From: Candidatus Magasanikiibacteriota bacterium
GTDB taxonomy: Bacteria; Patescibacteriota; Patescibacteriia; Magasanikbacterales; GWA2-37-8
DNA length: 64,000 nt
Assembly (NCBI GenBank): GCA_041666265.1
Contig: JBAYHH010000003.1
Coordinates: 2,020-66,019 of the forward strand
Reading direction: 5' to 3'
Shown: piece by piece, positions 22,126 to 42,257 of the stretch
How the letters are laid out: the number at the start of each line of letters is the position of its first letter
Position numbering within the stretch: position 1 is the first letter of the stretch
Translations under genes and position numbers: made by a program
Notes under the pieces: generated by a model
What the model was told of the DNA's origin: nothing
Database searches by the model: none
The model's input: the letters and a program-made list of their open reading frames with translations, nothing else

Positions 22126-22154
22126 TTGACACCCAATGACACCAGGGGTATAAT
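22126..22154 (+). promoter_or_regulatory. consensus sigma70 promoter TTGACA-N17-TATAAT overlapped by three TGACACC direct repeats
   Basis: TTGACA at 22126-22131, an exact 17-nt spacer, and TATAAT at 22149-22154. TTGACACC, TTGACACC and TGACACC repeat at 22116, 22126 and 22135. The downstream HTH gene starts at 22184. Confidence 0.6.
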
Positions 22155-26760: not shown

Positions 26761-26763
26761 TTT

Positions 26764-27636
26764 ATGTCAAAAAGGAATATAAAAAAAATATTAATTTGCG
26801 GCAAAGGTCAGCTCGGTCAAGAGTTGTATAATTTTTTGCGATTAAAATATGATGTAGAAATTGTGGATCAGAGCAAATTGGATATCACCGATAAAGAAAA
26901 GGTTTCTAAGTTTATCAATAAAAGTTTGCCCCATTGCATCATAAACGCTGCTGCTTATACTCAAGTTGAGCGAGCGGAACAGGAGGTAGAAGAGGCTTTC
27001 CGAGTGAATGCTTACGGTCCTTATTATTTAGCCGTCGTCGCCAAAAATGTTGGCGCGATCCTTATTCATATTAGTTCAGATTATGTATTTGATGGAACTA
27101 AAAAGTTCTTTGTGGAAACAGATGCACCCAACCCCTTAAATATTTACGGAGCATCCAAGTTGCTTGGGGAAATATTGGTTCAGATTGCCTATCCTAATTA
27201 TTATATTTTTCGCACTAGCGCCATTTTTGGTCGGTATACCAGCCAAAGTCGGACTAATTTCGTCGATCGGATAATTGGTTTGGCCCGAGGTGGCAGGGCT
27301 ATCAAAGCTGTCACCGATCAATTTACATCACCAACCTATGCCACCGATTTGGCAGTTAAAATTTCAGAATTTATTAAAAAACAGCCCCCCAGTGGCATTT
27401 ATCATATTACCAATAGCGGATCTTGTTCGTGGTATGACTTCGCTGTTAAAATATTAAGTACCATGAATTTGACCACAAAAGTTAAACCAACAAAGACCGC
27501 AAAAGTTTTAGGTCCGATATCTCGTCCATGTTATAGTATTTTACATAGTCAGTTATTAAAAAACAGCGGATTTGATACCTTGCCTTCTTGGCAAAATGCT
27601 CTCAAAAGATATTGCCGGGAAAAATATAATATTTAA
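26764..27636 (+). CDS. rmlD: dTDP-4-dehydrorhamnose reductase (RmlD family)
   Basis: ILICGKGQLGQEL, ...CIINAAAYTQVERAEQE...AFRVNAYGP...ILIHISSDYVFDG: RmlD signature. Confidence 0.8.
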   Translation: MSKRNIKKILICGKGQLGQELYNFLRLKYDVEIVDQSKLDITDKEKVSKFINKSLPHCIINAAAYTQVERAEQEVEEAFRVNAYGPYYLAVVAKNVGAILIHISSDYVFDGTKKFFVETDAPNPLNIYGASKLLGEILVQIAYPNYYIFRTSAIFGRYTSQSRTNFVDRIIGLARGGRAIKAVTDQFTSPTYATDLAVKISEFIKKQPPSGIYHITNSGSCSWYDFAVKILSTMNLTTKVKPTKTAKVLGPISRPCYSILHSQLLKNSGFDTLPSWQNALKRYCREKYNI

Positions 27637-27663: not shown

Positions 27664-28452
27664 ATGAAGACTATTATTCTGTGTGGGGGAACAGGCACTC
27701 GCATGAAAGAGGAGACAGAATTCAAACCTAAACCACTTGTTGAAGTTGGGGGCAAGCCAATTCTTTGGCATATCATGAAGATATATGCTCACTATGGTTT
27801 TAATGATTTTATTCTAGCTCTTGGATACAAGAGCAATATGATCAAAGATTACTTTCTTAACTGGCGTGCTTTTGTAAATGATTTTTCCTTAAATACCAAG
27901 ACCGGCGAAATGATTTTTCACAATAATGATTGTGATGATTTTAAGATTACTTTCGCGGAAACCGGTCTTACTAGTCTTACCGGCGAGCGGGTGCGTCGAT
28001 TGAAAAATTATATTACCGACGATCATTTTATGGTAACTTATGGTGACGGTGTAAGCGATATAGACATTTCTGAATTAATAAATTTTCATAAAAATCAAAA
28101 GACATTGGCCACTATCACTGGTGTGCGTCCCGGCAATCGTTTTGGTTTTTTGAATATTGATCACGAAGCCAAAAAAGCAGTTGATTTTTTTCAGCACAAA
28201 GTGACCAATACCGGCAAAGAAGAATCTTCCAAAGATTATATTAATGGTGGTTTCATGGTATTTGACAAAGAGGTGTTAGATATGATTGCAGAGGACAGCA
28301 TGATCGAATCAGTTTTTCCTGTTTTGGCGGAGCAAGGGCAACTCTCGGTTTATTTGCATTCGGGAAAATGGAAGTGCATGGATACTCATAAAGAAGTGGA
28401 AGAGATGAATGAGCATTGGACCAAAGATCCTTTTTGGAAAATTTGGAAATAA
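27664..28452 (+). CDS. ddhA: glucose-1-phosphate cytidylyltransferase
   Basis: MKTIILCGGTGTRMKEETEFKPKPLVEVGGKPILWHIMKIYAHYGFNDFILALGYK: near-identical to the RfbF/DdhA consensus. Confidence 0.9.
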   Translation: MKTIILCGGTGTRMKEETEFKPKPLVEVGGKPILWHIMKIYAHYGFNDFILALGYKSNMIKDYFLNWRAFVNDFSLNTKTGEMIFHNNDCDDFKITFAETGLTSLTGERVRRLKNYITDDHFMVTYGDGVSDIDISELINFHKNQKTLATITGVRPGNRFGFLNIDHEAKKAVDFFQHKVTNTGKEESSKDYINGGFMVFDKEVLDMIAEDSMIESVFPVLAEQGQLSVYLHSGKWKCMDTHKEVEEMNEHWTKDPFWKIWK

Positions 28453-28456
28453 TTTT

Positions 28457-29530
28457 ATGAAAAATTTTTATAACAATAAAAAAGTATTGATCACTGGGCA
28501 TACTGGGTTTAAAGGATCGTGGCTTACCCAGATGCTCATTAATTGGGGGGCAAAAATAATCGGAGTTTCTCTACCGCCCAATACTACCCCCAATCTCTTT
28601 GATTCTTTGGGGTTGAAATCAAAACTATATAAAAATTATTTTGAGGATATTCGTGATTATAATAAAATGAAGGAAATCTTTGAGCACGAAAAACCGGAAA
28701 TAGTTTTTCATTTAGCCGCTCAGCCATTGGTTCGTGACAGTTATGATGATCCTTTGACCACTCATTCCTCAAATATTATGGGTACGGCTAATATTTTACA
28801 GGCAATCAAAGAAGTTGGTGGAGTAAAATCAGCTGTAATTATTACTACTGATAAAGTTTACGAAAACAAGGAATGTCTTTATCCATATCGCGAAACAGAT
28901 GCTTTGGGCGGCTACGATCCTTATAGTGCCAGCAAAGCCGCCGCCGATATCGTGGTTAATTCTTATATTCAATCATTTTTCAATCCCAAAGATTTTGGCT
29001 TGGGACATAATACCTTGATAGCCATTGCCAGAGCTGGCAATGTCATTGGCGGCGGTGATTGGGCTAAAGATAGGTTGGTGCCCAATATGGTCAGGGCAAT
29101 TTTTGAATATGATGAGTCGGTAACGATTAGAAATCCACAAGCTGTCCGGCCGTGGCAACATGTTCTTGAACCACTGGTTGGCTATCTAATGCTTGGTCAG
29201 CGTCTTTACAATGGCGACAGAGAGATGTCTGGAGCATGGAATTTTGGACCACACGAAGAAGGCGTTGTGTGTGTCGAAGAATTAGTCCAGAAGGGTATCG
29301 GAGTGTTGGGAAAGGGCAGTCATAAGGTGATCAAAGATTACTCCAAACATGAAGCCGGATTATTAAAATTAGATATTAGCAAAGCAGTTAATATTTTGGG
29401 TTGGCGTCCTAAGTGGAACTTTCATGATGGCCTTAGGATTACTTTTGAATGGTATGATCAATATTATCGTGATCCTCAAAATATTGAAGAATTGACTAAT
29501 CAGCAAATAAGATTTTATCTCGGTGATTAA
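28457..29530 (+). CDS. ddhB: CDP-glucose 4,6-dehydratase
   Basis: FYNNKKVLITGHTGFKGSWLTQML: RfbG/DdhB N-terminus. The ATG at 28457 is preferred over the track start. Confidence 0.88.
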   Translation: MKNFYNNKKVLITGHTGFKGSWLTQMLINWGAKIIGVSLPPNTTPNLFDSLGLKSKLYKNYFEDIRDYNKMKEIFEHEKPEIVFHLAAQPLVRDSYDDPLTTHSSNIMGTANILQAIKEVGGVKSAVIITTDKVYENKECLYPYRETDALGGYDPYSASKAAADIVVNSYIQSFFNPKDFGLGHNTLIAIARAGNVIGGGDWAKDRLVPNMVRAIFEYDESVTIRNPQAVRPWQHVLEPLVGYLMLGQRLYNGDREMSGAWNFGPHEEGVVCVEELVQKGIGVLGKGSHKVIKDYSKHEAGLLKLDISKAVNILGWRPKWNFHDGLRITFEWYDQYYRDPQNIEELTNQQIRFYLGD

Positions 29531-29559
29531 AATTATAGAGCGATAGACTTTTGATGTGT

Positions 29560-30423
29560 ATGAGTAAAATTAAAGTCGGTATAATCGGCACTGGCAATAT
29601 TGGAACGGATCTTCTTTGTAAAATACAGAGATCCGATATTTTGGAATGCAGTATTTTTGCGGGGCGCGATCCTGAATCAAACGGAATAAAAAGGGCGGAA
29701 AATATGGGGATCAAAACTTCTTTTGACTCTATTCATGCTATTGAAGATGACCCATCTATATGCGAAGTTGTTTTCGATGCTACTTCTGCCAGAGCACACA
29801 TAGAACATGCGCGTATATTAAAAAAATTAGGTAAGTTTGTGATAGATATTACACCATCGCGAATAGGTAAGATGTGCATTCCGGCTATAAATATTGATCA
29901 GGCGTTGCAAAGTGACAATGTTAACATGGTAACATGTGGCGGGCAAGCATCAGTACCGATTGCCAAAGCTATCATGGAAATACATCCGGAAACGGAGTAT
30001 ATTGAAGTGGTGGCTAGCATTTCTTCCAAATCAGCTGGTTTGGGCACTAGGGCTAACATTGACGAATACACCCAAACCACTAAAGATGCGATCGAAATTT
30101 TTTCTGGCGTACCAAAAGCTAAGGCCATTATAATTTTGAATCCAGCCGAACCGCCAATTTTGATGAGCAATACCATATATTCTAAAATAAATAATCCCAA
30201 TTTAGAAAAAATAAAGAATAAAATATTGGAAGTTGAGGCGCAAATTCGTAAATATGTTCCTGGTTATAAAATATCACTCGGACCTGTTTACGAAAACGGG
30301 CGCCTCACCATTATGATAGAAGTAGTTGGAGTTGGGGATTATTTACCAGAATATTCGGGTAATTTAGATATAATAACTTGCGCCGCCGTACAGGTAGCAG
30401 AAGAATACGCTAAAAGAAAATAA
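29560..30423 (+). CDS. acetaldehyde dehydrogenase (acylating), DmpF/MhpF family
   Basis: MSKIKVGIIGTGNIGTDLL, NVNMVTCGGQASVPIA, EVVASISSKSAGLGTRANIDEYTQTT, ILNPAEPP: hallmark motifs of EC 1.2.1.10 enzymes. Confidence 0.85.
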   Translation: MSKIKVGIIGTGNIGTDLLCKIQRSDILECSIFAGRDPESNGIKRAENMGIKTSFDSIHAIEDDPSICEVVFDATSARAHIEHARILKKLGKFVIDITPSRIGKMCIPAINIDQALQSDNVNMVTCGGQASVPIAKAIMEIHPETEYIEVVASISSKSAGLGTRANIDEYTQTTKDAIEIFSGVPKAKAIIILNPAEPPILMSNTIYSKINNPNLEKIKNKILEVEAQIRKYVPGYKISLGPVYENGRLTIMIEVVGVGDYLPEYSGNLDIITCAAVQVAEEYAKRK

Positions 30424-30425
30424 TT

Positions 30426-31469
30426 ATGAATAAAACTATTTTTTTCGATTCCACTTTACGCGATGGTTCTCACGCTGTCCGGCACCAGATTAGTACGGAA
30501 TCAATTAGTGATTATTGTAGAAAAGTAGATGGAGCAGGCCTGTATGTTGTTATAGTTGGTCATGGTAATGGTTTGGGGGCGTCTTCATTGCAGGTTGGTT
30601 TGTCTGCGCATTCGGACTCAGAAATGTTGTTGGCCGCTCGTCGAGAGTTGCACAAAACAAAGTTGGGAGTTTTTCTACTGCCAGGTTTCGGAACCATTAA
30701 AGATGATTTAGCCCCAGCCCTTGATATAGGGGTGGAAGTAGTTTGCGTGGCTTCGCATTGTACCGAAGCCGATACCACTAGACAGCACATCGAATATGTT
30801 AGTAATAGAGGAAAAGAGGCATACGGTGTATTAATGATGTACCATAGGTCCTCCAGAGAAAAACTGTTGGAAGAGGCTCAAAAGATGCAGGATTATGGCG
30901 CTCAGGGTGTGATATTAATGGATTCCGCCGGCGCTTCAACTCCAGAAATGGTTTCTTCCGTTATTGGTTATCTATCAGAAAATCTAAAAATTCCCGTAGG
31001 TTTTCACGCGCACAATAATTTAGGTATGGCAGTGGCAAATTCACTTTTGGCTATTGAATCAGGGGCGGGAATAATCGATGGAACTTTGCGCGGTTTTGGC
31101 GCTGGGGCAGGCAATTGTCAACTGGAGGTGTTGGTGGCTTTGATGAAAAAAATGGGCATGAAAATAGATGTTGATTTATATGAATTATTAGATGTGAGCG
31201 AAGAGGTGGTTTCTAAAATTATGACTCAACCGCAAGAGATAAGTTCCTTAAGTATAGTCAGCGGTTTAGCTGGTGTTTTTTCTGGCTTTACTCCTCATGT
31301 TAAAGATGCTGCCACCAGATTTAATGTTGATCCAAGGGATATCTTTTTGGAATTAGGTAAGTTAAAAGTAGTTGGAGGGCAAGAAGATGTTATTGTCAGA
31401 GTAGCGATGAATTTGGCCGAAAAACGAAAGAATAGTGACATTAGTTACCAAATAGAGTCTTTGTCTTAA
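30426..31469 (+). CDS. 4-hydroxy-2-oxovalerate aldolase-like (DmpG/MhpE/BphI family, DRE-TIM pyruvate aldolase)
   Basis: DSTLRDGSHAVRHQ, VASHCTEAD, QHIEYVSN, GFHAHNNLGMAVANSLLAIESGA, C-terminal MVGGQEDVIV: DmpG signature blocks. Confidence 0.85.
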   Translation: MNKTIFFDSTLRDGSHAVRHQISTESISDYCRKVDGAGLYVVIVGHGNGLGASSLQVGLSAHSDSEMLLAARRELHKTKLGVFLLPGFGTIKDDLAPALDIGVEVVCVASHCTEADTTRQHIEYVSNRGKEAYGVLMMYHRSSREKLLEEAQKMQDYGAQGVILMDSAGASTPEMVSSVIGYLSENLKIPVGFHAHNNLGMAVANSLLAIESGAGIIDGTLRGFGAGAGNCQLEVLVALMKKMGMKIDVDLYELLDVSEEVVSKIMTQPQEISSLSIVSGLAGVFSGFTPHVKDAATRFNVDPRDIFLELGKLKVVGGQEDVIVRVAMNLAEKRKNSDISYQIESLS

Positions 31470-31482
31470 CCTTGTAAATAAT

Positions 31483-33261
31483 ATGATGTTAGCAGATTAT
31501 ATTTTCAAGTTTCTATCCGAAAAAGGTGTTGACCAGGTCTTTATGGTAACTGGCGGCCAAGCCATGTTTTTAGACGATGCGGTATATAAAAATAAAAAAA
31601 TGAAATTTATTTGTACGCACCACGAACAGGCTGCTGGCATGTCGGCAGATGCTTATGGGCGTATAAAAAATAAACCGGCAGTAGCATTAGTAACGGCCGG
31701 GCCAGGCGCGGTTAATGTTATTACCGGTGTAGTCGGTGGCTGGGCGGATTCTGCGCCGATGATTATTTTGTCTGGTCAATCAAATTTATCTTATGTAGAG
31801 TATCAAGAAAAAACCGGCATCAGGCAATATGGCGTTCAAGGAATAAATATTAAGCCGATAGTTGGAAAGATTGTTAAATATTTTGTCACAGTGGATAACC
31901 CGGAAAATATTTTGTATTACCTTGAAAAAGCTTATTATTTGGCCACTAGTGGTCGTCCTGGTCCGGTTTGGATTGATGTTCCGATTGATATGCAAAGAGC
32001 TGTTGTTCCAGAAGGGCATCTAAGAGTTTTTGATGAATATGAAAAACTCAACTCAATCGATAAAGAGGATATTAGCAAAATTATTAATCTTTTGAGTAAA
32101 GCTAAACGGCCAGTTGTTTTGGCTGGACAAGGGGTCAGATTGTCGGGAGGAACGGATGAGTTTGATAAGTTTATTAAAAAAGCGAACATTCCGATTCTAA
32201 CATCAAGATTGGGTATTGATTTGATAAATAGCGACAATAAACTCTATGTTGGTCGCCCGGGTACTTATGGCGAGCGATCAGCCAACTTTGCTATTCAAAA
32301 CTCTGATTTAATGTTGATAATTGGTTGTAGGTTGGCTACGCCATTAGTTGGGCACGATGCAAAAGATTTTGGCCGAAATGCCAAAAAAATAGTGGTGGAT
32401 ATTGATCCAAAAGAACTTGATAAGCCGGGTTTGGCAATTGATATTAAAATCACGGCCGATGTCGGTATTTTTCTCAAAGAAATAAATAACGAGATTATTA
32501 ACTCTAATTTGCCTGATTATAGTCAGTGGATCGCACAGTGTAATCGTTGGAAGGAAAAATATCCGGTCGTGTTGTCTGAATACAAAGACGAGAAACCGGT
32601 CAATTCTTATTATTTTACCGACAAGCTTTCTCAAGCAGCTTCTAGCAAAGATTTGATTTTGGTTGACACCGGGTCCTGCTTTCATGTTGTCTGTCAGTCA
32701 TGGAAAATTAAAGAAGGTCAAAAATTTTTGACAACTGGCGGGCTTTCATCAATGGGCTATTGGGCGGCCAGCATTGGTGCTTGCGAGGCAAACAATCGAA
32801 TCAACACCGTAGTTATCACTGGGGATGGAAGTTTGCAGATGAATCTACAAGAATTAGCCACCATTAAACACAATAAATTACCAATTAAAATATTCATTTT
32901 TAATAATAATGGCTATTTATTGATCAGACACACTCAAAATAATTTTATGGAAGGCCGCTTGATAGGTGAAAGTCCCGATACGGGTGTTTGGTGCCCGGAT
33001 TCTTTGAAGATTGCCGAGGCCTACGGCATTCATGCGATTAGAATTGATTCGGTTGTAGGCATGGAAGAAAAAATAAAAGAGGTTTTAGAATATGACGGTC
33101 CGGTGGTTTGTGATGTAATGACCCCGCAGCTGCAATTATTAATTCCCAGGGTAGCTTCGGATAAAATGCCTGACGGCCGGTTGGTTTCTAGGCCCTACGA
33201 GGACATGTTTCCATTTTTAAGTAGAGAAGAATTACAAAGTAATTTAGTTAAAGATAATTAG
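31483..33261 (+). CDS. thiamine-diphosphate-dependent enzyme, acetolactate synthase large-subunit-like (YerE-like candidate)
   Basis: 592 aa. N-terminal pyrimidine-binding domain (VTGGQAMFLDDA...VTAGPGAVNVITGVVGGWADSAPMIILSGQ) and C-terminal ThDP motif (VITGDGSLQMNLQELAT...FNNNGY). Confidence 0.85.
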   Translation: MMLADYIFKFLSEKGVDQVFMVTGGQAMFLDDAVYKNKKMKFICTHHEQAAGMSADAYGRIKNKPAVALVTAGPGAVNVITGVVGGWADSAPMIILSGQSNLSYVEYQEKTGIRQYGVQGINIKPIVGKIVKYFVTVDNPENILYYLEKAYYLATSGRPGPVWIDVPIDMQRAVVPEGHLRVFDEYEKLNSIDKEDISKIINLLSKAKRPVVLAGQGVRLSGGTDEFDKFIKKANIPILTSRLGIDLINSDNKLYVGRPGTYGERSANFAIQNSDLMLIIGCRLATPLVGHDAKDFGRNAKKIVVDIDPKELDKPGLAIDIKITADVGIFLKEINNEIINSNLPDYSQWIAQCNRWKEKYPVVLSEYKDEKPVNSYYFTDKLSQAASSKDLILVDTGSCFHVVCQSWKIKEGQKFLTTGGLSSMGYWAASIGACEANNRINTVVITGDGSLQMNLQELATIKHNKLPIKIFIFNNNGYLLIRHTQNNFMEGRLIGESPDTGVWCPDSLKIAEAYGIHAIRIDSVVGMEEKIKEVLEYDGPVVCDVMTPQLQLLIPRVASDKMPDGRLVSRPYEDMFPFLSREELQSNLVKDN

Positions 33262-34431
33262 ATGTTGTTATACAGCGACAACTTAAAGGAATCGTCCACA
33301 TTGAGAATAAACTCAATCGCCAATCAGAAAAAAAATAATGGTGAAAAAGTATATAATTTTAGTGTTGGCGAACCGGTAATTGAAAATCACGCTCTCATCG
33401 TAGAAGGGGTTTGTAATGCTCTTAAAAGAAATCGTACTCAATATCCGCCTGTTGCCGGCATAAATGAACTTTTGAGATTATGCGCCGACTGGATGAATAC
33501 AAATTATAATTGTTCATATAATTCTCAAGAAACAATGGTAACCTGTGGGGGAAAATATGGAATATTTCTAGCCCTACAAGCATTATTGGATGTCGGCGAT
33601 GAAGTAGTAATTATTTCTCCTTATTGGGTTTCGTATCCCGAAATGATAAAAATTTTTCATGGCATTCCTCGGGTTTACACAACCAAAGAAGAATCTGATT
33701 GGCGGGTGGATGCTATGGAATTACAAAAACTTATTAACAAAAAAACAAAAGCAATTATTATCAATAACGCCTCTAATCCTACCGGACATATTTTTTCCAA
33801 ACAAGAATTGGTTGATATTCTTGAAATGGCACATGATCAAAGTATTTTCGTAATTTCCGACGAGGTTTATAGTGGTTTGGTTTATGAATATAATCAATTT
33901 ATATCGGCCGGAAGTTTTGCTGAGTTTAAAGATAAGGTAATTATAATTCAAAGTTGTTCGAAAAATTTTGGCATGACCGGTTGGAGGGTAGGTATGATAT
34001 TTGGGCCGCAGGAAATTGTTAAGTGTCTGGCAGTCATTCAGAGCCAGAGCATAACCAATACTTCCATAGTAAGCCAGTGGGCGGCAATTACAGCTATTCA
34101 GAATGCTGATACAATTACTGGCGAGGTTAGAAAAATAGTACAAGGTAGAAGAGATGTTTTTGTTAGAGTGTTTAATGAATTATTTTCCGAAAAAATCAAA
34201 GCGCCTCAATCTTCCCTGTATTGTTTTGTGTCATTGAAAAAAATGGGAGTTTTCGGAAAAAATGCGGATGAGTTTTCTGCAGATTTAATTGAACAAGCGA
34301 ATATTGCCTTGACATCTGGTGGTGGCTTTGGTGACGATAATTATGTAAGATTTTCTTTCGGTATTAGTGAGGCGGAAATTATTGATGGTTTGCGGGTTCT
34401 AAAAAATTTTACGGAAAATAAAAAATTTTGA
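33262..34431 (+). CDS. class I/II pyridoxal-phosphate aminotransferase (AspC-like fold)
   Basis: NNASNPTGHIF, VISDEVYSGL, and the SCSKNFGMTGWRVGM lysine-containing motif of class I aminotransferases. Confidence 0.8.
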   Translation: MLLYSDNLKESSTLRINSIANQKKNNGEKVYNFSVGEPVIENHALIVEGVCNALKRNRTQYPPVAGINELLRLCADWMNTNYNCSYNSQETMVTCGGKYGIFLALQALLDVGDEVVIISPYWVSYPEMIKIFHGIPRVYTTKEESDWRVDAMELQKLINKKTKAIIINNASNPTGHIFSKQELVDILEMAHDQSIFVISDEVYSGLVYEYNQFISAGSFAEFKDKVIIIQSCSKNFGMTGWRVGMIFGPQEIVKCLAVIQSQSITNTSIVSQWAAITAIQNADTITGEVRKIVQGRRDVFVRVFNELFSEKIKAPQSSLYCFVSLKKMGVFGKNADEFSADLIEQANIALTSGGGFGDDNYVRFSFGISEAEIIDGLRVLKNFTENKKF

Positions 34432-35246
34432 TTATGACTGCCACAGAATTGAAGCGAATTGCTTCAAAAATAAGAATTAATATTTTAAATTTAATTTACA
34501 AAACGAAAAGTTCGCATATCGGATCTTGTTTTTGTATTGTTGATATTCTCGCTGTTTTATATTTTAAAATAATGAATATCAATCCACAGAACATTAAAGA
34601 TGAGAATCGAGATATTTTTATTTTAAGCAAGGGGCACGCGGTAGTGGCTTTATATATTGTTTTGGCCGAAGCCGGTTTTTATGATTTTTCTGTTTTGGAT
34701 AAGTATGCTACTGATGGGTCAAAGTTGGCTGGCCATGTTATTAAAAATAGCCTCCCTGGCATCGAGGTATCGTCTGGGTCTTTGGGGCACGGCCTGTCTA
34801 TGGCTGTGGGCATGGCTTTAGCCGCTAAACTTGATAATAAAAGCAGAAAGATTTTTTGTTTGATGGGGGATGGCGAATGTAATGAAGGTTCGGTGTGGGA
34901 AGCAACTATGTTTGCCGCTCAACACAAGCTCAGCAATCTATATATCATTGTTGACTATAATAATCAACAAGGTATGGGCGAAGCAGATAAGATAATATCT
35001 CAGAATAATCTCGCTGAGAGATTTAGATCTTTTGGTTGCAACTCTATCGATGTTGATGGACATGATATTGGTGCCTTGCTGGGCGCTTTTGGCGGCAAAG
35101 TTGATACTAGGCCAGTGGTTATTGCAGCCAAAACAATAAAAGGAAAAGGCGTAAGTTTTATGGAGAATAATGTTGATTTTCACTATAAAAGCCCAACCGA
35201 TGAGCAGCATGCCTTGGCTTTAAAAGAACTAACAGAATCAGTATGA
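34428..35246 (+). CDS. transketolase, N-terminal (ThDP-binding) subunit
   Basis: GSCFCIVDILAVLYF, SKGHAVVALY, GSLGHGLSMAVGMALA, GDGECNEGSVWEA: split-transketolase N-subunit motifs. Confidence 0.85.
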   Translation: MIMTATELKRIASKIRINILNLIYKTKSSHIGSCFCIVDILAVLYFKIMNINPQNIKDENRDIFILSKGHAVVALYIVLAEAGFYDFSVLDKYATDGSKLAGHVIKNSLPGIEVSSGSLGHGLSMAVGMALAAKLDNKSRKIFCLMGDGECNEGSVWEATMFAAQHKLSNLYIIVDYNNQQGMGEADKIISQNNLAERFRSFGCNSIDVDGHDIGALLGAFGGKVDTRPVVIAAKTIKGKGVSFMENNVDFHYKSPTDEQHALALKELTESV

Positions 35247-36175
35247 GAAATTTAGTCATAAATTATATATTTGAAGAAGCTAAAAAGAATCCGAATATTA
35301 TTTTGATGACGGCTGATTTGGGTTATTCGGTGATGGAGAAGTTTATGCAGGAATTACCTAAACAATTTATCAACACCGGCATTGCCGAACAAAACATGAT
35401 CGGAGTTGCGGCCGGCCTAGCTCTAAGCGGTAAAAAAGTTTTCGTCTATACCATTGCTCCGTTCGCTACTATGAGATGTTTTGAACAGATTAGGGTTGAT
35501 GTGTGTTATCAGAATTTAGATGTAACAATAATAGGGGTGGGAGGGGGTTTGGCTTATGGTACTCTGGGTACCACTCATTACGCCTTAGAGGATTTAGCCA
35601 CCATGAGATCTTTGCCCAACATGAAAGTTATGTGTCCGGCCGATCCCAACGAAGCGGCGCTGGTTGTTAAAAAAGCCATGAAAATCGAAGGTCCGAGTTA
35701 TATTAGATTAAATCGTGGTGGTGAAAAAAATGTTATCGACGATATTGATTATTCTGGTATTGAAATAGTTAGCCCGATAAAAATAATTGAGAATAAGGGA
35801 AGTGTTGTTATTTTTTCCTGTGGCAACATTTTATCAGAAGCTTACAAGGCCGCTAATAATTTGGTTAAAAATAACAAACATGTTTCTCTTTTCAGCCTTC
35901 CGTTTCTAAAACCAGTTGATAAAGAGGCGGTGGTTAATATTTTAAAGGATTACAAAGCTATCTTTACGGTAGAGGAGCATAATATTATTGGTGGTTTAGG
36001 TTCGATAATAGCAGAAATGATTGCCGAAGAAAATTTAAATGTTAAATTGGTGAGGCTGGGCATCGAAGATAAATATTTTGATTTTATTGGCAAACAAGAT
36101 TACATGCGCGATCAAGCTGGTATATCTGCTCAAAAGATTGAACAAAAAATTATAAATAGCTTTTATGAAAGATAA
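35243..36175 (+). CDS. transketolase, C-terminal (pyrimidine-binding) subunit
   Basis: INTGIAEQNMIGVAAGLAL, FVYTIAPFATMRCFEQIR, GGGLAYGTLGTTHYALEDLATMRSLPNMKV. Confidence 0.85.
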   Translation: MRNLVINYIFEEAKKNPNIILMTADLGYSVMEKFMQELPKQFINTGIAEQNMIGVAAGLALSGKKVFVYTIAPFATMRCFEQIRVDVCYQNLDVTIIGVGGGLAYGTLGTTHYALEDLATMRSLPNMKVMCPADPNEAALVVKKAMKIEGPSYIRLNRGGEKNVIDDIDYSGIEIVSPIKIIENKGSVVIFSCGNILSEAYKAANNLVKNNKHVSLFSLPFLKPVDKEAVVNILKDYKAIFTVEEHNIIGGLGSIIAEMIAEENLNVKLVRLGIEDKYFDFIGKQDYMRDQAGISAQKIEQKIINSFYER

Positions 36176-37052
36176 AAAAAAGATATTTTTAACAGGCGGC
36201 GGAGGATTTGTTGGAAAAAATATTCTGGAACAACTTGGTGACAAATATGAATTTATTGCGCCCCGCAGTAGTGAGCTTGATTTGACCAATTCCGATAAAG
36301 TGTTTAGTTTTGTGCAATCTCTGCGACCAGATTTGGTAATACATGCGGCCAAAAAAGGCGGTTCCAGAAAAGATCCAAATTCTACTGATATTTGTTTTAA
36401 AGATTTGCAAATGTTTTTTAATATTGTTCGTAGTCGAAAATATTTTGGTAGGATGATAATGTTTGGTAGCGGAGCCGAGTACGACAAAAGATTTGATATC
36501 GCCGAAGTTAAAGAAGATTTTTTTGAAACTCGCATGCCGGTGGATCAGTACGGTTTTTATAAATATATCTGCGCCCAATATGCCGCCAGAGTTGATTTTA
36601 TCACCCACTTGCGTATTTTTGGGGTATTTGGCAAATATGAGGATTTCACCATTCGTTTTATCTCCAATAATATTTGTCGAGCACTATTTGGCCTACCTAT
36701 CTCCGTTAATCAGGATACTTTTTTTGAATATATTTTCGTAGATGATTTTATTAAGATCTTGGATTATTTTATTAATAATCCCAGTAAAGAAAAATTTTAC
36801 AACATCGGAAATGGTAGTAAATTATCATTATTGGATATTGGTAATAAAATATTAAAAAAATCGGGGAAAGATATTCCAATCCTGCTTAAAAAAACTGGGT
36901 TAAACAAGGAATACACTTGTAATATTGATCGTCTGAAAAATGAAATTCCCGACCTGTCTTTTATATCGATTGATGAAGCGATTGATAAATTATTTTTATA
37001 TTATTCCAAAAATATTAAAAATATTAAAAAAGAAGATATTTTATTTGATTAA
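36165..37052 (+). CDS. NAD(P)-dependent sugar epimerase/reductase (extended SDR)
   Basis: IFLTGGGGFVGKNI Rossmann motif; 295 aa. Confidence 0.65.
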   Translation: MKDKKKIFLTGGGGFVGKNILEQLGDKYEFIAPRSSELDLTNSDKVFSFVQSLRPDLVIHAAKKGGSRKDPNSTDICFKDLQMFFNIVRSRKYFGRMIMFGSGAEYDKRFDIAEVKEDFFETRMPVDQYGFYKYICAQYAARVDFITHLRIFGVFGKYEDFTIRFISNNICRALFGLPISVNQDTFFEYIFVDDFIKILDYFINNPSKEKFYNIGNGSKLSLLDIGNKILKKSGKDIPILLKKTGLNKEYTCNIDRLKNEIPDLSFISIDEAIDKLFLYYSKNIKNIKKEDILFD

Positions 37053-37057
37053 CTAAT

Positions 37058-38368
37058 ATGTCACTAAACGAAAAAATTATTCAGGGCATAAATGAAGAAT
37101 ATCAGAAAATGTTTCCGGTAAAAAAATTTGTTCCGGGAGTTTCGGCCGTGCCGGTTTCCGGAAAAGTATTTGATGAGCGCGAAATTCTGAACGGTGTAGA
37201 AGCGATTCTGGATGGTTGGTGGACCGAAGGTAGATTTAGTGATCAGTTTGAGAGTAAATTAGCGCGTTGGCTTGGGGTTAAAAATGTTACCTTAGTAAAT
37301 TCTGGGTCTTCCGCCAATCTCATTGCTGTATCGGCACTAACCTCCAAAAAATTAGGAGATAGATGTTTGCGACCGGGAGATGAAGTGATTACTGTTGCCG
37401 CTGCTTTTCCCAGCACTGTGAATCCGATTATTCAAAATGGCCTTGTTCCAGTATTTGTTGATGTTGAGCTCGGCCATTATAATGCCTCTATGGACGAAGT
37501 TAGGAAAGCCATCTCCCCCAAGACGAAAGCGATATTTATTGCCCACACTCTCGGTAATCCTTTTGATCTGGATAGTATGGTGCAATTTTGCAAAGAGCAT
37601 CATTTGTGGCTGATTGAAGATAATTGCGATGCCCTTGGGGCGATGTATGGAGATAAGAAAACCGGTACATTTGGTCATATCGCGACCTGCAGTTTTTACC
37701 CCGCGCACCACATAACTTTAGGTGAGGGTGGGGCAGTGTTCACTAGCGACGATGTCTTGGCGCGTATTATTCGTTCTGTGCGCGATTGGGGCAGAGACTG
37801 CCATTGTAAGACCGGTCAAGACAATACTTGTGGTATGCGCTTTGGTTGGCAATTAGGTAAATTACCGTTTGGTTATGACCATAAATATGTTTACTCCGAA
37901 ATCGGCTATAACCTTAAGTTAACAGATATGCAGGCGGCTATCGGTTTGGCTCAGTTAGATAAGCTGGATAATTTTGTCGCTAAACGGCGAAATAATTTTG
38001 ATACACTTTACAATGGTCTAACGAAGTTTGAAAAATATTTTATCTTACCAAAGCATCAGGATAAGGCGAAGCCAAGCTGGTTTGGTTTTCTGTTAACCGT
38101 AAAACCAGACGCCCCGTTTACCAGAGAAGAAATCATCACTCATTTACAGAATGAGCAGGTTGCTACCAGGTATTTATTTGGAGGTAATTTATTGAAACAG
38201 CCGTATTTTGTTGATAACGAGATTAATTATCGAGTAATTGGCGATTTACCAAACACTGATCTTATTATGAATAATACTTTTTGGGTCGGAGTATATCCTG
38301 GTATTACTACGGAGATGGCCGAATATATAGTTTCTTCCATTCAATCATTTTGTCAGAAATATGCCTAA
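37058..38368 (+). CDS. ddhC: CDP-6-deoxy-D-xylo-4-hexulose-3-dehydrase (E1, PMP-dependent, [2Fe-2S])
   Basis: DegT/DnrJ/EryC1 fold with ILDGWWTEGRF. The active-site Lys is replaced by His (SFYPAHHIT), plus a C-x-C-x7-C cysteine motif (DCHCKTGQDNTC), both characteristic of E1 rather than aminotransferases. 436 aa. Confidence 0.85.
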   Translation: MSLNEKIIQGINEEYQKMFPVKKFVPGVSAVPVSGKVFDEREILNGVEAILDGWWTEGRFSDQFESKLARWLGVKNVTLVNSGSSANLIAVSALTSKKLGDRCLRPGDEVITVAAAFPSTVNPIIQNGLVPVFVDVELGHYNASMDEVRKAISPKTKAIFIAHTLGNPFDLDSMVQFCKEHHLWLIEDNCDALGAMYGDKKTGTFGHIATCSFYPAHHITLGEGGAVFTSDDVLARIIRSVRDWGRDCHCKTGQDNTCGMRFGWQLGKLPFGYDHKYVYSEIGYNLKLTDMQAAIGLAQLDKLDNFVAKRRNNFDTLYNGLTKFEKYFILPKHQDKAKPSWFGFLLTVKPDAPFTREEIITHLQNEQVATRYLFGGNLLKQPYFVDNEINYRVIGDLPNTDLIMNNTFWVGVYPGITTEMAEYIVSSIQSFCQKYA

Positions 38369-39245
38369 AACATTATTGCTTACCGGTGGAACTGGATTTT
38401 TAGGGAGCAATTTATTAAAAAAATTATTATCAGAAAATTATCGAATTGTTTTGGCAAAGCGATCCTTTTCTAATATTTGGCGTATTAGCGATAACATATC
38501 GAAAGTTAAATTTTATGATATTGATAGGCAGGATTTATCGGTAATATTTGATGAGCAAAAGATCGATGTAATATTACATTGTGCCACTGATTATGGAAGG
38601 AAACAAGTAAACCCACTTCAGATTATTGAGGCCAATTTGATTCTACCTCTAAAATTATTACAGTTGGGAAAAGAGCGGGGAGTAAAGTATTTTATCAATA
38701 CTGATACGGTTTTGGATAAGCGTGTTAATGATTACACATTATCCAAGAAGCAATTCATAGATTGGCTTGGTACATACAAACACGATTTGGTTTGTATTAA
38801 TATGGCCTTAGAACATTTTTTTGGGCCAGGTGATGATAAGACAAAATTTGTGTCGTTTATTTTGGACAATCTATATAACAATGTCGACAAAATTGATCTC
38901 ACTAAAGGCGAACAGAAAAGAGACTTTGTTTATATCGACGATGTGGTCAGCGCTTTTATGGTGGTCATAAACAATCTCGACAAATGGCGGCACGGTTTTT
39001 TTCATTATGAGGTTGGCACCAATCAACTAACCTCAATTAAAGAGTTTGTGGGCAAGATTAAAGCAATTATTGGTAATGGTAAAACCTTATTAAATTTTGG
39101 CGCTCTTCCATACCGAGAGGGCGAGGTGATGACTTCGAGCGCTGATACAACAGCTATTCATCTATTGGGTTGGTCACCGCGATACGATGTTGATTCTGGG
39201 TTACGCGAAACAATCGCTATGGAAAATAAATTGAGAAATATTTAA
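38361..39245 (+). CDS. NAD(P)-dependent nucleotide-sugar reductase/epimerase (abequose/paratose-synthase-like or YerF-like)
   Basis: LLLTGGTGFLGSNLLKKLL Rossmann motif; 294 aa; sits in the CDP-dideoxyhexose block. Confidence 0.65.
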   Translation: MPKTLLLTGGTGFLGSNLLKKLLSENYRIVLAKRSFSNIWRISDNISKVKFYDIDRQDLSVIFDEQKIDVILHCATDYGRKQVNPLQIIEANLILPLKLLQLGKERGVKYFINTDTVLDKRVNDYTLSKKQFIDWLGTYKHDLVCINMALEHFFGPGDDKTKFVSFILDNLYNNVDKIDLTKGEQKRDFVYIDDVVSAFMVVINNLDKWRHGFFHYEVGTNQLTSIKEFVGKIKAIIGNGKTLLNFGALPYREGEVMTSSADTTAIHLLGWSPRYDVDSGLRETIAMENKLRNI

Positions 39246-39260
39246 TATGAAATATTTAAT

Positions 39261-40277
39261 ATGAAATATTTAATCACCGGTGGTTGTGGTTTCCTTGGGT
39301 CAAATTTGGCGCAACAAGTCATAAACAGGGGAGAGGAACTAATAATTTTAGATAATTTATCTCGTTTTGGTTCCGAAGAAAATTTATTATGGTTGCGGAG
39401 TTTGGGTCAATTCAAATTTATAAAGGCAGACATTAGAAATGTTGGCGATGTTGAGCGGATAATTAAAGACGAAAAACCGGATGTAGTATTTCATTTGGCT
39501 GGTCAGGTGGCCATGACCAATTCAATTGCAGATCCCAGAAAAGACTTTGAAACAAATGCCGGTGGCACTTTTAATTTATTAGATTCTGTCAGAAAATTTT
39601 CACCAGATTCGATTGTGATATACTCCTCGACCAATAAAGTTTATGGTGATTTGGAGCGGTTAGAATATTTGGAAACAAACAAACGCTACATCACACCCCA
39701 ATATCCCAATGGCTTACCGGAGTCTACTCCGCTCAGTTTTTCTTCGCCCTACGGATGTTCAAAAGGTTCCGCGGACCAGTATATGTTAGATTTTCACCGT
39801 GTTTACGGTTTAAGGACAATAGTATTTCGGCATTCCTCCATGTATGGTGGTAGGCAATTTCCAACTTATGATCAAGGCTGGATTGGTTGGTTTTGCGAAC
39901 AGGCTTTAAAAACAAAGCAGGGGAGTTTGTCAGAGTCGTTCACTATATCTGGTAATGGTAAGCAGGTGAGAGATGTTTTGCACGCCGAGGATATGGTTAA
40001 TTTGTATTTTTTGGCGGCAGAAAAAGCCGAATCTATTACCGGTGAAGTTTTTAATATCGGCGGCGGCGCGCAGAATAGCCTATCTTTATTGGAGCTTTTT
40101 GACATTTTAGAAGATGAATTAATAGTAAAATTAAGTTACCGACAGTTACCACATAGAGAAAGCGATCAAAAAGTCTTTATAGCCGATATCAATAAAGCCG
40201 GTAGATTAATTGGCTGGCAGCCAAAGGTAAACGCTCGACAAGGGATACAAAAAATGATAGAATGGATCAATCAATAA
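39261..40277 (+). CDS. CDP-paratose/tyvelose 2-epimerase homolog
   Basis: [105 protein letters not shown]: block-by-block match to RfbE/Tyv. Confidence 0.85.
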
Positions 40278-40984
40278 GAATGAAATTTATGGAAAATAAA
40301 GAATTGAGCATCATAATCCCGGCGTATTTAGAAGAAGAAAACCTTAGAATAATTCTGCCGCGTCTTAATGCTATTCTTCAAGAAATTGGTGATAATTGCG
40401 AAATTCTGGTGGTGGATACTATGGAAAAGATGGATAATACCAAAATGGTTTGCGAAGAATATGGGGCTACTTATATCAACAGGATAGGCGGTAATGATTA
40501 CGGAGACGCCATCAGAACCGGTATCAGCCGTGCCAGCGGGCAATATACAATTTTTATGGACGCAGACGGGTCTCATGACCCAGAATTTATAAAGAATTTG
40601 TACAATATCAAAGATAATTACGATGTAGTGATAGCGTCAAGATATATAGCCGGTGGGAATACTGATAATAGTAAATTGTTGATACTAATGAGTTTGGTTG
40701 TCAATGTTGCTTATTCTTTAATATTAAATATTAAGTGCAAGGATATCTCTAATAGTTTTAAATTATATAAGACGGATGATTTAAGAGATTTAAGGTTGAT
40801 GTGCAATAATTTTGATATTGTCGAAGAAATTTTGTTTAAATTGAAAAAGAAAAAGCACAATCTGCGCATAAAAGAATTGCCATTTCTTTTCAAAAAGAGA
40901 ATATTCGGTCATACTAAGAGAAATTTATTTGTGTTTATGCTTTCTTATATCGTCACAATAGTTAAGTTAAGATTTTCTAAGTAA
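40262..40984 (+). CDS. family 2 glycosyltransferase (DPM1/GtrB-like)
   Basis: [14 protein letters not shown]...ILVVD...[10 protein letters not shown]. Confidence 0.7.
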
Positions 40985-41000: not shown

Positions 41001-42257
41001 ATGAACAGTGGGATAATAGAAATTTTACAAAAATTAACTAAGCCAATTTTTTTGTTATATGCCATTATCGCTACTTTCTCCGTAGCCAATTTTCCGGCTG
41101 TAAAATTTGCTCAATTTTTTGGAATTAGCCAAGATGACTCTATAATATTGCGTGGTTTTATTTTTTTTATTGCCATTATAATATTATTTTATTTTTCCTT
41201 CAAAAATATTAACAGTCTAAAATCTTATCTATCACGAGATGTCTTTTTTCGTTCAGCCATAATATTTTTAGCATTATCGGCGCTGGTCTCTACTTTGCGC
41301 GTCATGTTTATGGGCGATGTTTATGCGCACATTGCCATATCACCATTTGGCCAAGATACCGGATTTTTTTATCGTAGGATTTTAGAGCCAGCCTTAGCGT
41401 ATTTTTTGCAGTTTAAGGGTCCATTTTTATATACTATTTTGCATTTTCTAATAACATACTCATGTATTTACATGATTATCTTATGGCTTGAAAAAAAGCT
41501 ATTGGTGAAGTTAAAAATTTGGCAACTGGTAAGTATTATGACCGCCGGCATGATGATTATGCAGTTTCAATCTCCGGGATATCCAGATCAGATAATATTG
41601 CTGTTATGTTTGTTGTCAATGTTTATTCCAATGGATAAATACAGCAGAATAAGCTTGCTGTCATTAATGTTTTTGTCTCACGAATCCGCTGCATTATTTT
41701 TGGGATTTGTTTTCATTTGGTTTTATTTTCCCAAGGAAGAGCGAAAATTTTACGTGCCGATAGTCGCGTTTAATTATTTTTTATGGCTGGCCAATTATAA
41801 TTTTAGTTTTGTGGGATTATTTTTAGGTCATTTGACGCTGGGCAACGACAATGCGCTGGGTATTCTTTTAAAAAATATAAAATTGGCGATATTGTCCGTA
41901 TTTTTTGCCTACAAATTTTTATGGCTATTTGTTTTATCCGGCCTATATTATTGTATAAAAAATAAAGACAATAAATTATTTTGGCAGATAGCTGTCATGG
42001 TTTTTGCGCCTTTAATATTGGTTGTCGTTCCGGATACTTCGCGTGTTGTGGCTTGGGGCTATGTTGGTGTTTTTTTAGCTATTACTTATTCTTACAAGTA
42101 TCTGCGCAGCCGAGCGTTTAATCTGATTTTGACAGTCAACCTACTATTGCCCAGTGTAGCAGTCGGAATAAGTACTGGCGGCGCCGTTTCTTATCCCGGT
42201 TTATATGGTTTAGTCATTCATTTATTTAAGTTATTTGTTAAAAATTACCTAATGTAA
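41001..42257 (+). CDS. hypothetical polytopic membrane protein (candidate polymerase/GT-C)
   Basis: About 10-12 hydrophobic segments and no soluble-domain motifs. Confidence 0.45.
   Translation: MNSGIIEILQKLTKPIFLLYAIIATFSVANFPAVKFAQFFGISQDDSIILRGFIFFIAIIILFYFSFKNINSLKSYLSRDVFFRSAIIFLALSALVSTLRVMFMGDVYAHIAISPFGQDTGFFYRRILEPALAYFLQFKGPFLYTILHFLITYSCIYMIILWLEKKLLVKLKIWQLVSIMTAGMMIMQFQSPGYPDQIILLLCLLSMFIPMDKYSRISLLSLMFLSHESAALFLGFVFIWFYFPKEERKFYVPIVAFNYFLWLANYNFSFVGLFLGHLTLGNDNALGILLKNIKLAILSVFFAYKFLWLFVLSGLYYCIKNKDNKLFWQIAVMVFAPLILVVVPDTSRVVAWGYVGVFLAITYSYKYLRSRAFNLILTVNLLLPSVAVGISTGGAVSYPGLYGLVIHLFKLFVKNYLM

Follow-up and report, generated by a model that had tools for sequence, protein, structure and literature searches.

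A non-canonical split transketolase and an aspartate aminotransferase-like enzyme are encoded within an erwiniose-type CDP-sugar cassette of a Candidatus Magasanikiibacteriota bacterium

The closest described relative of the gene block analysed here is the erwiniose cluster of Pectobacterium atrosepticum (Steitz et al. 2022, PMC9306805). The block occupies positions 27664–40277 of a 64,000-nucleotide stretch (the window) of contig JBAYHH010000003.1, assembly GCA_041666265.1, from a Candidatus Magasanikiibacteriota bacterium, a member of the candidate phyla radiation (CPR), and it combines genes for a CDP-3,6-dideoxyhexose with a carbon-branching module, an aminotransferase and a split transketolase (TK). 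In the erwiniose pathway the acetaldehyde dehydrogenase ErwJ and the BphI/DmpG-like aldolase ErwI produce (R)-4-hydroxy-2-oxopentanoate. The YerE-like enzyme ErwE, which refuses pyruvate, adds this keto acid decarboxylatively to a ketone, and ErwF is the proposed reductase of the resulting branch ketone; ddh genes lie alongside (PMC9306805). The acceptor used with ErwE in vitro was a simplified analogue, and CDP-4-keto-3,6-dideoxy-D-glucose is the proposed physiological acceptor (PMC9306805). YerE and YerF of yersiniose A biosynthesis in Yersinia pseudotuberculosis, as well as JanthE and PpYerE, represent the same thiamine diphosphate (ThDP)-dependent chemistry that we propose for the window: an alpha-keto acid is added, with decarboxylation, to a CDP-4-keto-3,6-dideoxyhexose, and the product is then reduced. 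YerE uses pyruvate as donor and has no aldolase or dehydrogenase partner, whereas the ThDP enzyme clade of the window is always accompanied by DmpF and DmpG (DmpFG).

Two-gene TKs have been described in deoxysugar clusters as well. They occur in the miharamycin and amipurimycin clusters and in 13 Streptomyces biosynthetic gene clusters, where, as proposed here for the window, a keto sugar is the suggested acceptor; the transfer of a hydroxyacetyl group to keto sugars by the miharamycin and amipurimycin enzymes has been proposed and never shown (PMC12247030). According to the same 2025 review, all 13 known sugar-cluster split TKs come from Streptomycetes and are uncharacterised (PMC12247030). 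While these belong to actinomycete secondary metabolism, TKs of the type found in the window occur in surface-glycan loci of Patescibacteria and other uncultured phyla, beside CDP-glucose genes. A third related system is the AniQ/AniP pair of anisomycin biosynthesis, in which, as in the window, an aminotransferase adjoins an enzyme of the TK family from which canonical phosphate-binding residues are missing; AniP uses non-phosphorylated substrates (PMC11387542). AniP is a single chain of 603 amino acids acting on aromatic keto acids with an aldehyde acceptor (PMC11387542), whereas the aminotransferase and TK of the window are modules that are separable across loci. A literature search for transketolase together with CDP-glucose and O-antigen returned no report.

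All twelve genes of the block, among them those named in the initial annotation, were located at the stated coordinates, on the + strand and tightly packed or overlapping. The families that the annotation had assigned were all confirmed by profile searches (Pfam plus TIGR/NCBIfam equivalogs, with bit scores judged against family cutoffs) and by alignments to solved structures. From ddhA through the glycosyltransferase family 2 (GT2) gene at the tail of the cassette, the intergenic distances are −44, 20, 2, 13, 0, −4, −4, −11, 5, −8, 15 and −16 nt. As the gaps range only from −44 to +20 nt and no terminator-like site was found in any intergenic gap of the block, the genes are likely to form one operon. 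The block shares with the erwiniose cluster the acetaldehyde dehydrogenase, BphI/DmpG-type aldolase and YerE-like carboligase families, a candidate NAD(P)H reductase close by and, of the genes that lead to CDP-4-keto-3,6-dideoxy-D-glucose, ddhA, ddhB and ddhC (PMC9306805). It differs from it in carrying an aspartate aminotransferase (AspAT)-type gene and a split TK between the ThDP enzyme and the reductase, and no E3 gene was found in the window. The likeness to ErwE (WP_011093010) and ErwF (WP_011093011) is one of family and synteny.

The branching module begins with an acylating acetaldehyde dehydrogenase of the DmpF/BphJ/ErwJ type (29551–30423, + strand; TIGR03215, 395.6 bits against a cutoff of 282.25), which aligns to PDB 7z3s with 328 bits and to DmpF (1nvm_B) with 245 bits. 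It keeps the catalytic-cysteine motif TCGGQA in the alignment to 7z3s and is predicted to make acetaldehyde from acetyl-CoA. Separated from it by 2 nt is the gene for a 4-hydroxy-2-oxovalerate (pyruvate) aldolase of the DmpG/BphI/ErwI type (30426–31469, + strand; TIGR03217, 389.3 bits against 286; PF00682 and the DmpG_comm domain PF07836), which scores 265 bits to 1nvm_A and retains the motifs LRDGSHA (LRDGxHA) and HAHNNLG. The pair shares with the DmpFG/BphIJ complex of meta-cleavage pathways its equivalog membership, the catalytic Cys, the motifs that bind metal and substrate, and the communication domain of DmpG. Unlike that complex it stands in an anabolic context, without meta-cleavage genes, and the predicted direction is from acetyl-CoA and pyruvate to a hydroxy-keto acid.

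The next gene encodes a YerE/ErwE-like ThDP-dependent carboligase (31483–33261, + strand) with three TPP domains and a GDG-x26-NN motif at residue 447. Its nearest solved structure is JanthE (8rph, 407 bits), a characterised YerE-like enzyme that also accepts 4-hydroxy-2-oxovalerate, and chains named as acetolactate synthase (ALS) reach 266 bits at most. A role as biosynthetic ALS was rejected, since the protein scores below every ALS cutoff, its nearest structure is YerE-like and there is no small subunit gene nearby. The constant linkage of this clade to DmpFG points to a C5 hydroxy-keto-acid donor, and the predicted substrates are 4-hydroxy-2-oxopentanoate as donor and a CDP-4-keto sugar as acceptor.

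The core of the block belongs with the acyl-branched sugar pathways of the erwiniose-type, YerE-like family that is already in the literature. The initial annotation had inferred a previously undescribed route to a C-branched or chain-extended CDP-dideoxyhexose, adding that it knew of no characterised nucleotide-sugar pathway in which DmpFG are joined with YerE and transketolase. A C-branched CDP-3,6-dideoxyhexose product is very probable, but the novelty of the core has to be given up, because the gene set is that of the erwiniose scheme, a known sugar pathway in which DmpFG-type enzymes and a YerE-like enzyme occur together (PMC9306805). The profile searches that the annotation had suggested did agree with it: TIGR03215 and TIGR03217 were above cutoff, the ThDP enzyme was YerE-like and below the ALS cutoffs, and the dehydrase DdhC was E1 and not ColD. 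What is undescribed in this context, in the available literature, is the presence of a split TK and a class I aminotransferase inside such a cassette.

A neighbourhood search for DmpFG together with ddhABC in other genomes, also suggested earlier, was positive and revealed a conserved cassette of the order ddhA-ddhB-DmpF-DmpG-ThDP-SDR-(ddhC)-GT2 (SDR, short-chain dehydrogenase/reductase). The core recurs, with gene order or composition kept, in more than 20 unrelated contigs, so that the co-localisation is not a matter of chance. The ThDP enzyme has thousands of homologues; the best 120 are 64–82% identical to it, and the named hosts among these are metagenome-assembled genomes (MAGs) of Patescibacteria, Omnitrophota, Elusimicrobiota and Pseudomonadota. 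DmpF and DmpG adjoin every ThDP homologue of at least 65% identity with readable flanks, and the DmpF-DmpG-ThDP trio is also present at 47–50% identity in Micrarchaeota, Paenibacillus and Sulfuricurvum loci. A scan of a genome collection with lysine-rich peptide patterns identified 13 loci, with no Pectobacterium among them; the trio hosts in this collection were a Falkowbacteria MAG, Oscillospiraceae and Bacillota MAGs, three Paenibacillus species, Sulfurospirillum, Sulfuricurvum and a Micrarchaeota archaeon. Taken overall, erwiniose-like cassettes were found in Patescibacteria, Omnitrophota, Bacillota, Paenibacillus, Sulfuricurvum and a Micrarchaeota archaeon. The proposed "unifying scheme" for acyl-branched sugars would thus reach past Proteobacteria and mycobacteria to CPR bacteria, Omnitrophota, Bacillota and a DPANN archaeon, and given the spread of the cassette uncultured cells may commonly carry such sugars.

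The archaeal locus (L095 in our numbering of related loci; Candidatus Micrarchaeota archaeon, JBDRIM010000018.1) encodes ddhA, ddhB and ddhC together with DmpF, DmpG, the ThDP enzyme and the SDR at 46–59% identity, which implies a cross-domain spread of the branched-sugar module or, possibly, a binning error. Another recurrent group consists of a GNAT gene, a class I aminotransferase and a DegT-type aminotransferase (11793–14741 of L009 and 6241–9167 of L103). The aminotransferases of this trio are not orthologues of the one in the window (28% identity in L103), and the trio may be a sign that these branched sugars also exist in amino and N-acetylated forms.

The split TK is encoded by an N-terminal (ThDP/PP) subunit, TK-N (34428–35246, + strand; PF00456, 134.9 bits; 237 bits to the split TK 6yak), and a C-terminal (Pyr/C) subunit, TK-C (35243–36175, + strand; PF02779 and PF02780; 192 bits to 6yaj), both of which fall into a sugar-type (sugar-cluster) clade. 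The window TK-C is identical to NCBI entry MFA6486007.1, and the nearest solved relative of the pair is the split TK of Carboxydothermus. Where the canonical motif is THGGxxVGEDGxSHQ, the window TK-C reads GVGGGLAYGTLGTTHY, with Gly100 at the position of E. coli TK H461 and Leu108 at that of D469. In the E. coli enzyme, H461 serves to bind the phosphate of the substrate and D469 to read the 2-hydroxyl of the acceptor (PMC11387542). In order to compare these positions more widely, callable TK-C motifs were collected from the fetched loci and the window, and identical sequences were removed; this left 21 sugar-type sequences including the window, 49 canonical ones and two that fit neither group. 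The H461 equivalent is Gly in all 21 sugar-type sequences and His in all 49 canonical split TKs, and the D469 equivalent is Ala or Leu in 19 of the 21 and Asp in 49 of 49. The clade is characterized by the signature GxGxGxxYGxx(A/L)GxTHH, and its TK-N subunits are without one Arg and one Gln that are invariant across 47 aligned canonical TK-N sequences.

Much of the TK active site is retained. The window TK-N, from which canonical R94 and Q101 are gone, keeps H30, H70, H103 and H252 as well as the ThDP-binding motif GDGECNEG, the window TK-C keeps H112, R2 and R155, and the clade as a whole keeps the equivalents of E. coli TK H26, H66, H100, H261, H473, R358 and R520. Since the donor-binding histidines are retained, hydroxyacetyl-type C2 transfer is the simplest reading of its activity. 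Retention of the ThDP-binding residues, of most catalytic histidines and of the phosphate-binding R358 and R520 equivalents, together with a bona fide split TK as nearest solved structure, would also suit an enzyme that is merely the pentose-phosphate TK of the organism, or its supplier of ketose or aldose phosphates, and that lies in a glycan locus by chance without acting on nucleotide sugars. We regard this as improbable: the residues that recognise the phosphate and the C2 hydroxyl in canonical TKs, His461 and Asp469 (PMC11387542), have been lost clade-wide, and the clade is strongly tied to nucleotide-sugar genes, while no tie to ddh or YerE-like genes exists for the 49 canonical split TKs. 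A role as DXP synthase was also tried and rejected (TIGR00204, 180.8 bits for a cutoff of 465.95), with Leu in place of Asp in the DG-TH (GxDGxTH) motif.

The genomic context of the clade was examined next to that of the canonical enzymes. A ddhA, ddhB, ddhC or YerE-like gene lies nearby in 13 of 20 sugar-type loci and in none of the 49 canonical ones (Fisher p = 2e-9, an indicative value only, as some loci are near-duplicates and genes were counted within the fetched DNA). The neighbours in three further sugar-type loci are an NTP-transferase gene paired with an SDR, a gene of a DegT enzyme, or one for a sugar C-methyltransferase, which brings the nucleotide-sugar context to at least 16 of 20. 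A metagenome scan with TK-N gave no relative above 54% identity, and the closer relatives, up to 79%, were found in the protein database only.

Three of these loci are informative as to the role of the TK. Locus L104 (Patescibacteria, GCA_028688375.1) has the order ddhA-ddhB-TKN-TKC-SDR-ddhC followed by a B12 radical SAM gene, and no YerE-like ThDP, DmpFG or aminotransferase gene was found in it; the TK therefore occupies exactly the slot of the branching enzyme there, a position that again speaks against an ordinary TK. Locus L105 reads ddhA-ddhB'-ThDP(35%)-TKN-TKC-SDR-ddhC-SDR-tyvelose epimerase-GT2 and corresponds to the tail of the window block without DmpFG or the aminotransferase. In L027, a contig of 145 kb whose TK-C is annotated as Candidatus Magasanikbacteria, the TK is combined with DmpFG, an HpcH aldolase and a ThDP enzyme. 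From the residue pattern and this synteny we infer that the split TK would act on a CDP-keto sugar, as the second enzyme of the block to form a C-C branch. The more general proposal, that the clade is an unrecognised and widespread family that uses CDP- or other NDP-keto sugars and adds C2 branches on glycans of CPR and other uncultured bacteria, is put forward tentatively and in our estimate falls somewhat short of an even chance.

If it is true, this would be the first evidence-backed TK family forming tertiary alcohols on ketones, outside Streptomyces, and one small-genome bacterium would make either two ThDP-branched dideoxyhexoses or one doubly elaborated sugar. In any case the clade supplies sequence-defined candidates with a diagnostic motif for the question, raised in the review, whether TKs accept keto sugars (PMC12247030). 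L104, with a TK in place of the YerE-type module, allows that question to be tested directly in vitro, and both the clade and this natural TK-for-YerE replacement merit experimental follow-up.

Downstream of the window block, a gene at 42274–44241 (+ strand) encodes a B12-binding radical SAM enzyme (KedN5-like C-methyltransferase; NF033712, 275.6 bits, below the cutoff of 700). The B12 radical SAM homologue of L104 (13145–15097, directly after ddhC) is 73% identical to it, and the window enzyme is possibly part of a TK-linked module.

The class I aminotransferase, here termed AT1 (33262–34431, + strand; PF00155, 229 bits; 221 bits to the AspAT 1j32), is identical to NCBI entry MFA6486005.1 and aligns over its full length with the AspATs of Thermus and Phormidium. 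Its NCBIfam score of 306 against a cutoff of 550 allows a family-level assignment only. AT1 keeps the pyridoxal phosphate (PLP) lysine K234, the alpha-carboxylate arginine R363 and the subgroup-Ib distal-carboxylate lysine K98, and also W122, N172, D200, Y203 and R242, as in lower-identity AspAT-family homologues (120 homologues were compared). Close homologues number only about ten, at 57–73% identity; the next matches, at 51% or less, include proteins annotated as AspATs of Magasanikbacteria and Uhrbacteria. Only 14 clade-specific positions distinguish AT1 from the lower-identity set, none of them known to be catalytic or carboxylate-binding. Judged by these residues, AT1 is a barely diverged paralogue of CPR housekeeping AspATs.

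Its orthologues appear in the order ThDP-AT-SDR-ddhC in L007, which has DmpFG, and in L106 and L107, with an extra SDR gene between ThDP and AT in L107; in L106 and L107 another HMGL-like protein, accompanied by an HpcH aldolase or not, makes up the keto-acid module. A relative with 42% identity lies upstream of DmpF in L009. Among the loci examined, AT1 homologues of at least 42% identity are confined to cassettes with an HMGL-like/DmpG or HpcH aldolase plus a ThDP enzyme (the window, L007, L009, L106 and L107), and the TK loci yielded none. The association of AT1 is therefore with the part of the cassette that holds the aldolase and the ThDP enzyme, and not with the TK. It still resembles a transaminase of amino acids and keto acids, and its probable place of action is the alpha-keto-acid pool, which it would feed or balance, rather than the sugar itself. 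According to work on BphI and HpaI, class II pyruvate aldolases decarboxylate oxaloacetate to the pyruvate enolate.

We considered a functional pair of AT1 and the split TK resembling AniQ/AniP, in which AT1 would deaminate an amino acid to an alpha-keto acid (serine to hydroxypyruvate, for example) that the TK would use as decarboxylative acyl-anion donor onto a sugar or aldehyde. An aminotransferase with a keto-acid-using TK has biochemical precedent (PMC11387542), the AT1 stop codon and the TK-N start overlap by 4 nt, and in L103 two aminotransferase genes are directly upstream of TKN-TKC. These are merely 28% identical to AT1, though, and the two partners part company elsewhere: AT1 orthologues (57–67% identity) occur without any TK in L007, L106 and L107, and close TK orthologues (61–75% identity) without AT1 in L104 and L105. 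As they are separate in five loci, an obligate pair was rejected, and cooperation of the AniQ/AniP kind is in our judgement quite unlikely.

AT1 could instead aminate the C-1' carbonyl of the new acyl branch, or another sugar ketone, giving an amino-substituted branched dideoxyhexose, a sugar type that is undescribed. Its orthologues lie directly downstream of the ThDP gene (with the one SDR between in L107) and before the SDR and ddhC, whichever keto-acid module is present, and the GNAT and aminotransferase pairs in the related loci L009 and L103 suggest amination followed by N-acetylation. Transamination is among the modifications of acyl branches listed in the review (PMC12247030). Against this stand the intact alpha-carboxylate arginine and AspAT Ib lysine of AT1, the small number of positions at which it differs from the AspAT-family set and the continued presence of a candidate branch ketoreductase. 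To our knowledge, moreover, nucleotide-sugar aminotransferases belong to the DegT family and not to the AspAT class. Branch amination thus seems unlikely, although it deserves to be kept in mind.

The initial annotation had offered as an alternative that a 4-hydroxy-2-amino-acid-like substituent is made. Here AT1 would transaminate 4-hydroxy-2-oxopentanoate to a gamma-hydroxy-alpha-amino acid, serving as non-carbohydrate substituent of the glycan. The alpha-keto-acid/amino-acid site of AT1 is intact and its co-occurrence is only with aldolase-containing cassettes, as such a role would have it. However, the locus revealed no gene for an ATP-grasp, adenylating or other ligase, and its unassigned ORFs encode either polytopic membrane proteins or small proteins without a Pfam match. 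Transamination would moreover compete with the ThDP enzyme for its donor, and AT1 is always within the ThDP-SDR-ddhC run. We do not favour this alternative and consider it very unlikely.

Feeding of the keto-acid pool by AT1 is the reading adopted in what follows, where the remaining genes of the cassette are considered. The cassette is headed by ddhA, encoding glucose-1-phosphate cytidylyltransferase (27664–28452, + strand; PF00483; TIGR02623, 278.6 bits, just under the cutoff of 300.25), whose homologues likewise head the cassette at 65–81% identity in the closest related loci and 39–47% in more distant ones. The overlapping ddhB gene encodes CDP-glucose 4,6-dehydratase (28409–29530, + strand; TIGR02622, 468.8 bits against 278.45); since the hidden Markov model match starts at residue 20, translation probably begins downstream of the 44-nt overlap. 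The gene ddhC/RfbH (37058–38368, + strand; NF011936, 698.3 bits against 423) encodes E1, the CDP-6-deoxy-L-threo-D-glycero-4-hexulose 3-dehydrase. Its cysteines C190, C248, C250 and C258 show the spacing C-X57-C-X-C-X7-C, and His217/218 lies at the position of the PLP lysine in DegT enzymes; these two features are the hallmarks that distinguish E1 from ColD. Identification of this DegT-family gene as ColD was rejected on account of the Fe-S cysteine motif.

Between TK-C and ddhC lies an RmlD/Fcl-like SDR reductase, SDR295 (36165–37052, + strand; PF01370 and PF04321 only, no equivalog), a candidate branch ketoreductase of the ErwF/YerF type. Homologues with 38–71% identity directly follow the ThDP enzyme, AT1 or TK in L001, L007, L008, L091, L095 and L104–L107, and others were found within the same cassette in further loci. 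A second SDR, SDR294 (38361–39245, + strand; PF01370, 104.6 bits, no equivalog), is a candidate CDP-4-keto-3,6-dideoxyhexose 4-reductase of the paratose/abequose-synthase kind; it accompanies the tyvelose-epimerase homologue in L105 and L107. The latter, a homologue of CDP-tyvelose 2-epimerase (39261–40277, + strand; 548 bits to 9rl0 and 464 bits to 1orr), aligns over residues 1–337 to the solved enzymes, with the next family at 147 bits. The GT2 gene at the tail of the cassette (40262–40984, + strand; PF00535) has a 72% identical homologue in the same position in L105, and in L003, L005 and L107 the cassette is followed by GT2 genes of about the same size.

All substrates and products of the pathway that we propose are predicted from the observed family memberships, synteny, clade signatures and modularity. 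DdhA and DdhB would provide CDP-4-keto-6-deoxy-D-glucose, from which the E1 dehydrase DdhC would take away O-3. The DmpF-like enzyme would convert acetyl-CoA to acetaldehyde, and the DmpG-like aldolase would condense this with pyruvate to 4-hydroxy-2-oxopentanoate, which the YerE/ErwE-like enzyme would decarboxylate, placing the C4 acyl unit onto C-4 of the CDP-4-keto sugar. SDR295 would then reduce the branch ketone. The non-canonical split TK would add a C2 unit of the hydroxyacetyl type to a CDP-keto sugar, so that a second branched sugar would arise or the first would be elaborated further, and AT1 would feed the aldolase and ThDP steps, for example by converting Asp to oxaloacetate or Ala to pyruvate. 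SDR294 and the tyvelose-epimerase homologue would finish the 3,6-dideoxyhexose or dideoxyhexoses, to be installed by adjacent GT2 enzymes. We favour this explanation as a whole, comprising the core, the erwiniose-type module, TK, AT1 and the finishing enzymes, with moderate confidence.

Several points weigh against it. The use of a ketone as acceptor has never been demonstrated for any TK (PMC12247030), and a single SDR295 must serve two branching enzymes unless another SDR handles the TK product. AT1 always lies between ThDP and SDR-ddhC, a position that fits action on the branched sugar as well, and as most DmpFG-ThDP cassettes are without AT1, it is dispensable for the core chemistry. The apparent orthology of the ThDP enzyme to ErwE rests on family, synteny and the match to JanthE. 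The window contains ddhA, ddhB and ddhC but no ddhD, so that 3-deoxygenation would need another reductant.

The E3 gene (ddhD/ascD) was searched for by Pfam scans of all large ORFs in the window, with no hit, and the plant-type 2Fe-2S motif C-X4-C-X2-C-X~30-C was found in none of the six reading frames of the window. Nor was an E3-type gene present in the Pfam listings of those related cassettes whose genes were listed. A dehydrase that is fully E1-like without E3 nearby raises the question of how these organisms drive 3-deoxygenation. A Fer4/LdpA-like Fe-S protein is encoded directly after ddhB in L106 (3699–4706) and L107 (1915–2922), and it could be an E3 substitute.

The block lies within a + strand gene run that spans approximately 18.5 kb to 61 kb of the window, with a G+C content of 0.32–0.41 against mostly 0.42–0.51 in the flanks. 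A candidate promoter of this long glycan operon, TTGACA-17-TATAAT (22126–22154, + strand; 12/12 matches), lies within a 326-nt gap upstream of a flippase gene and is a sigma-70 consensus match only. The best explanation as a whole, which we consider probable, is that the block is one co-transcribed part of a surface-glycan locus of about 40 kb that forms a mosaic of separable nucleotide-sugar modules. Should the genome be as small as is typical of CPR bacteria, a locus of this size would represent a large investment.

The glycan locus (18525–61223, about 40 kb) also includes gmd/fcl, FkbM and other methyltransferase genes and a carbamoyltransferase gene. At least eight glycosyltransferase genes are present, six of the GT2 family at 40–51 kb and GT11, GT2 and GT4 genes further downstream. 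Directly upstream of ddhA (24903–27636) are genes for an RmlC-like 3,5-epimerase, for a sugar C-methyltransferase of the TylC3 type (PF08421/PF08484) and for an RmlD equivalog (285 bits, cutoff 224), which suggests a further, C-methyl-branched 6-deoxyhexose made from the same pool of CDP-4-keto-6-deoxyglucose. Three large polytopic membrane proteins without a Pfam match are encoded at 41001–42257, 45207–47957 and 52194–54128. At 56151–56663, after a gap of 289 nt, an ORF of 170 amino acids with a GTG start matches the C-terminal half only of class I methyltransferase domains (profile positions 47–93 of 95) and may be a truncated or mis-started gene. A gene of the Wzy_C/O-antigen-ligase family (16279–18396) lies upstream of the glycan locus, as do two very large ORFs at 3425–7102 and 12172–16062. 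One of these encodes 1225 amino acids without a Pfam match and the other 1296 amino acids with a lamin-tail domain and a right-handed beta-helix, and both may be surface proteins.

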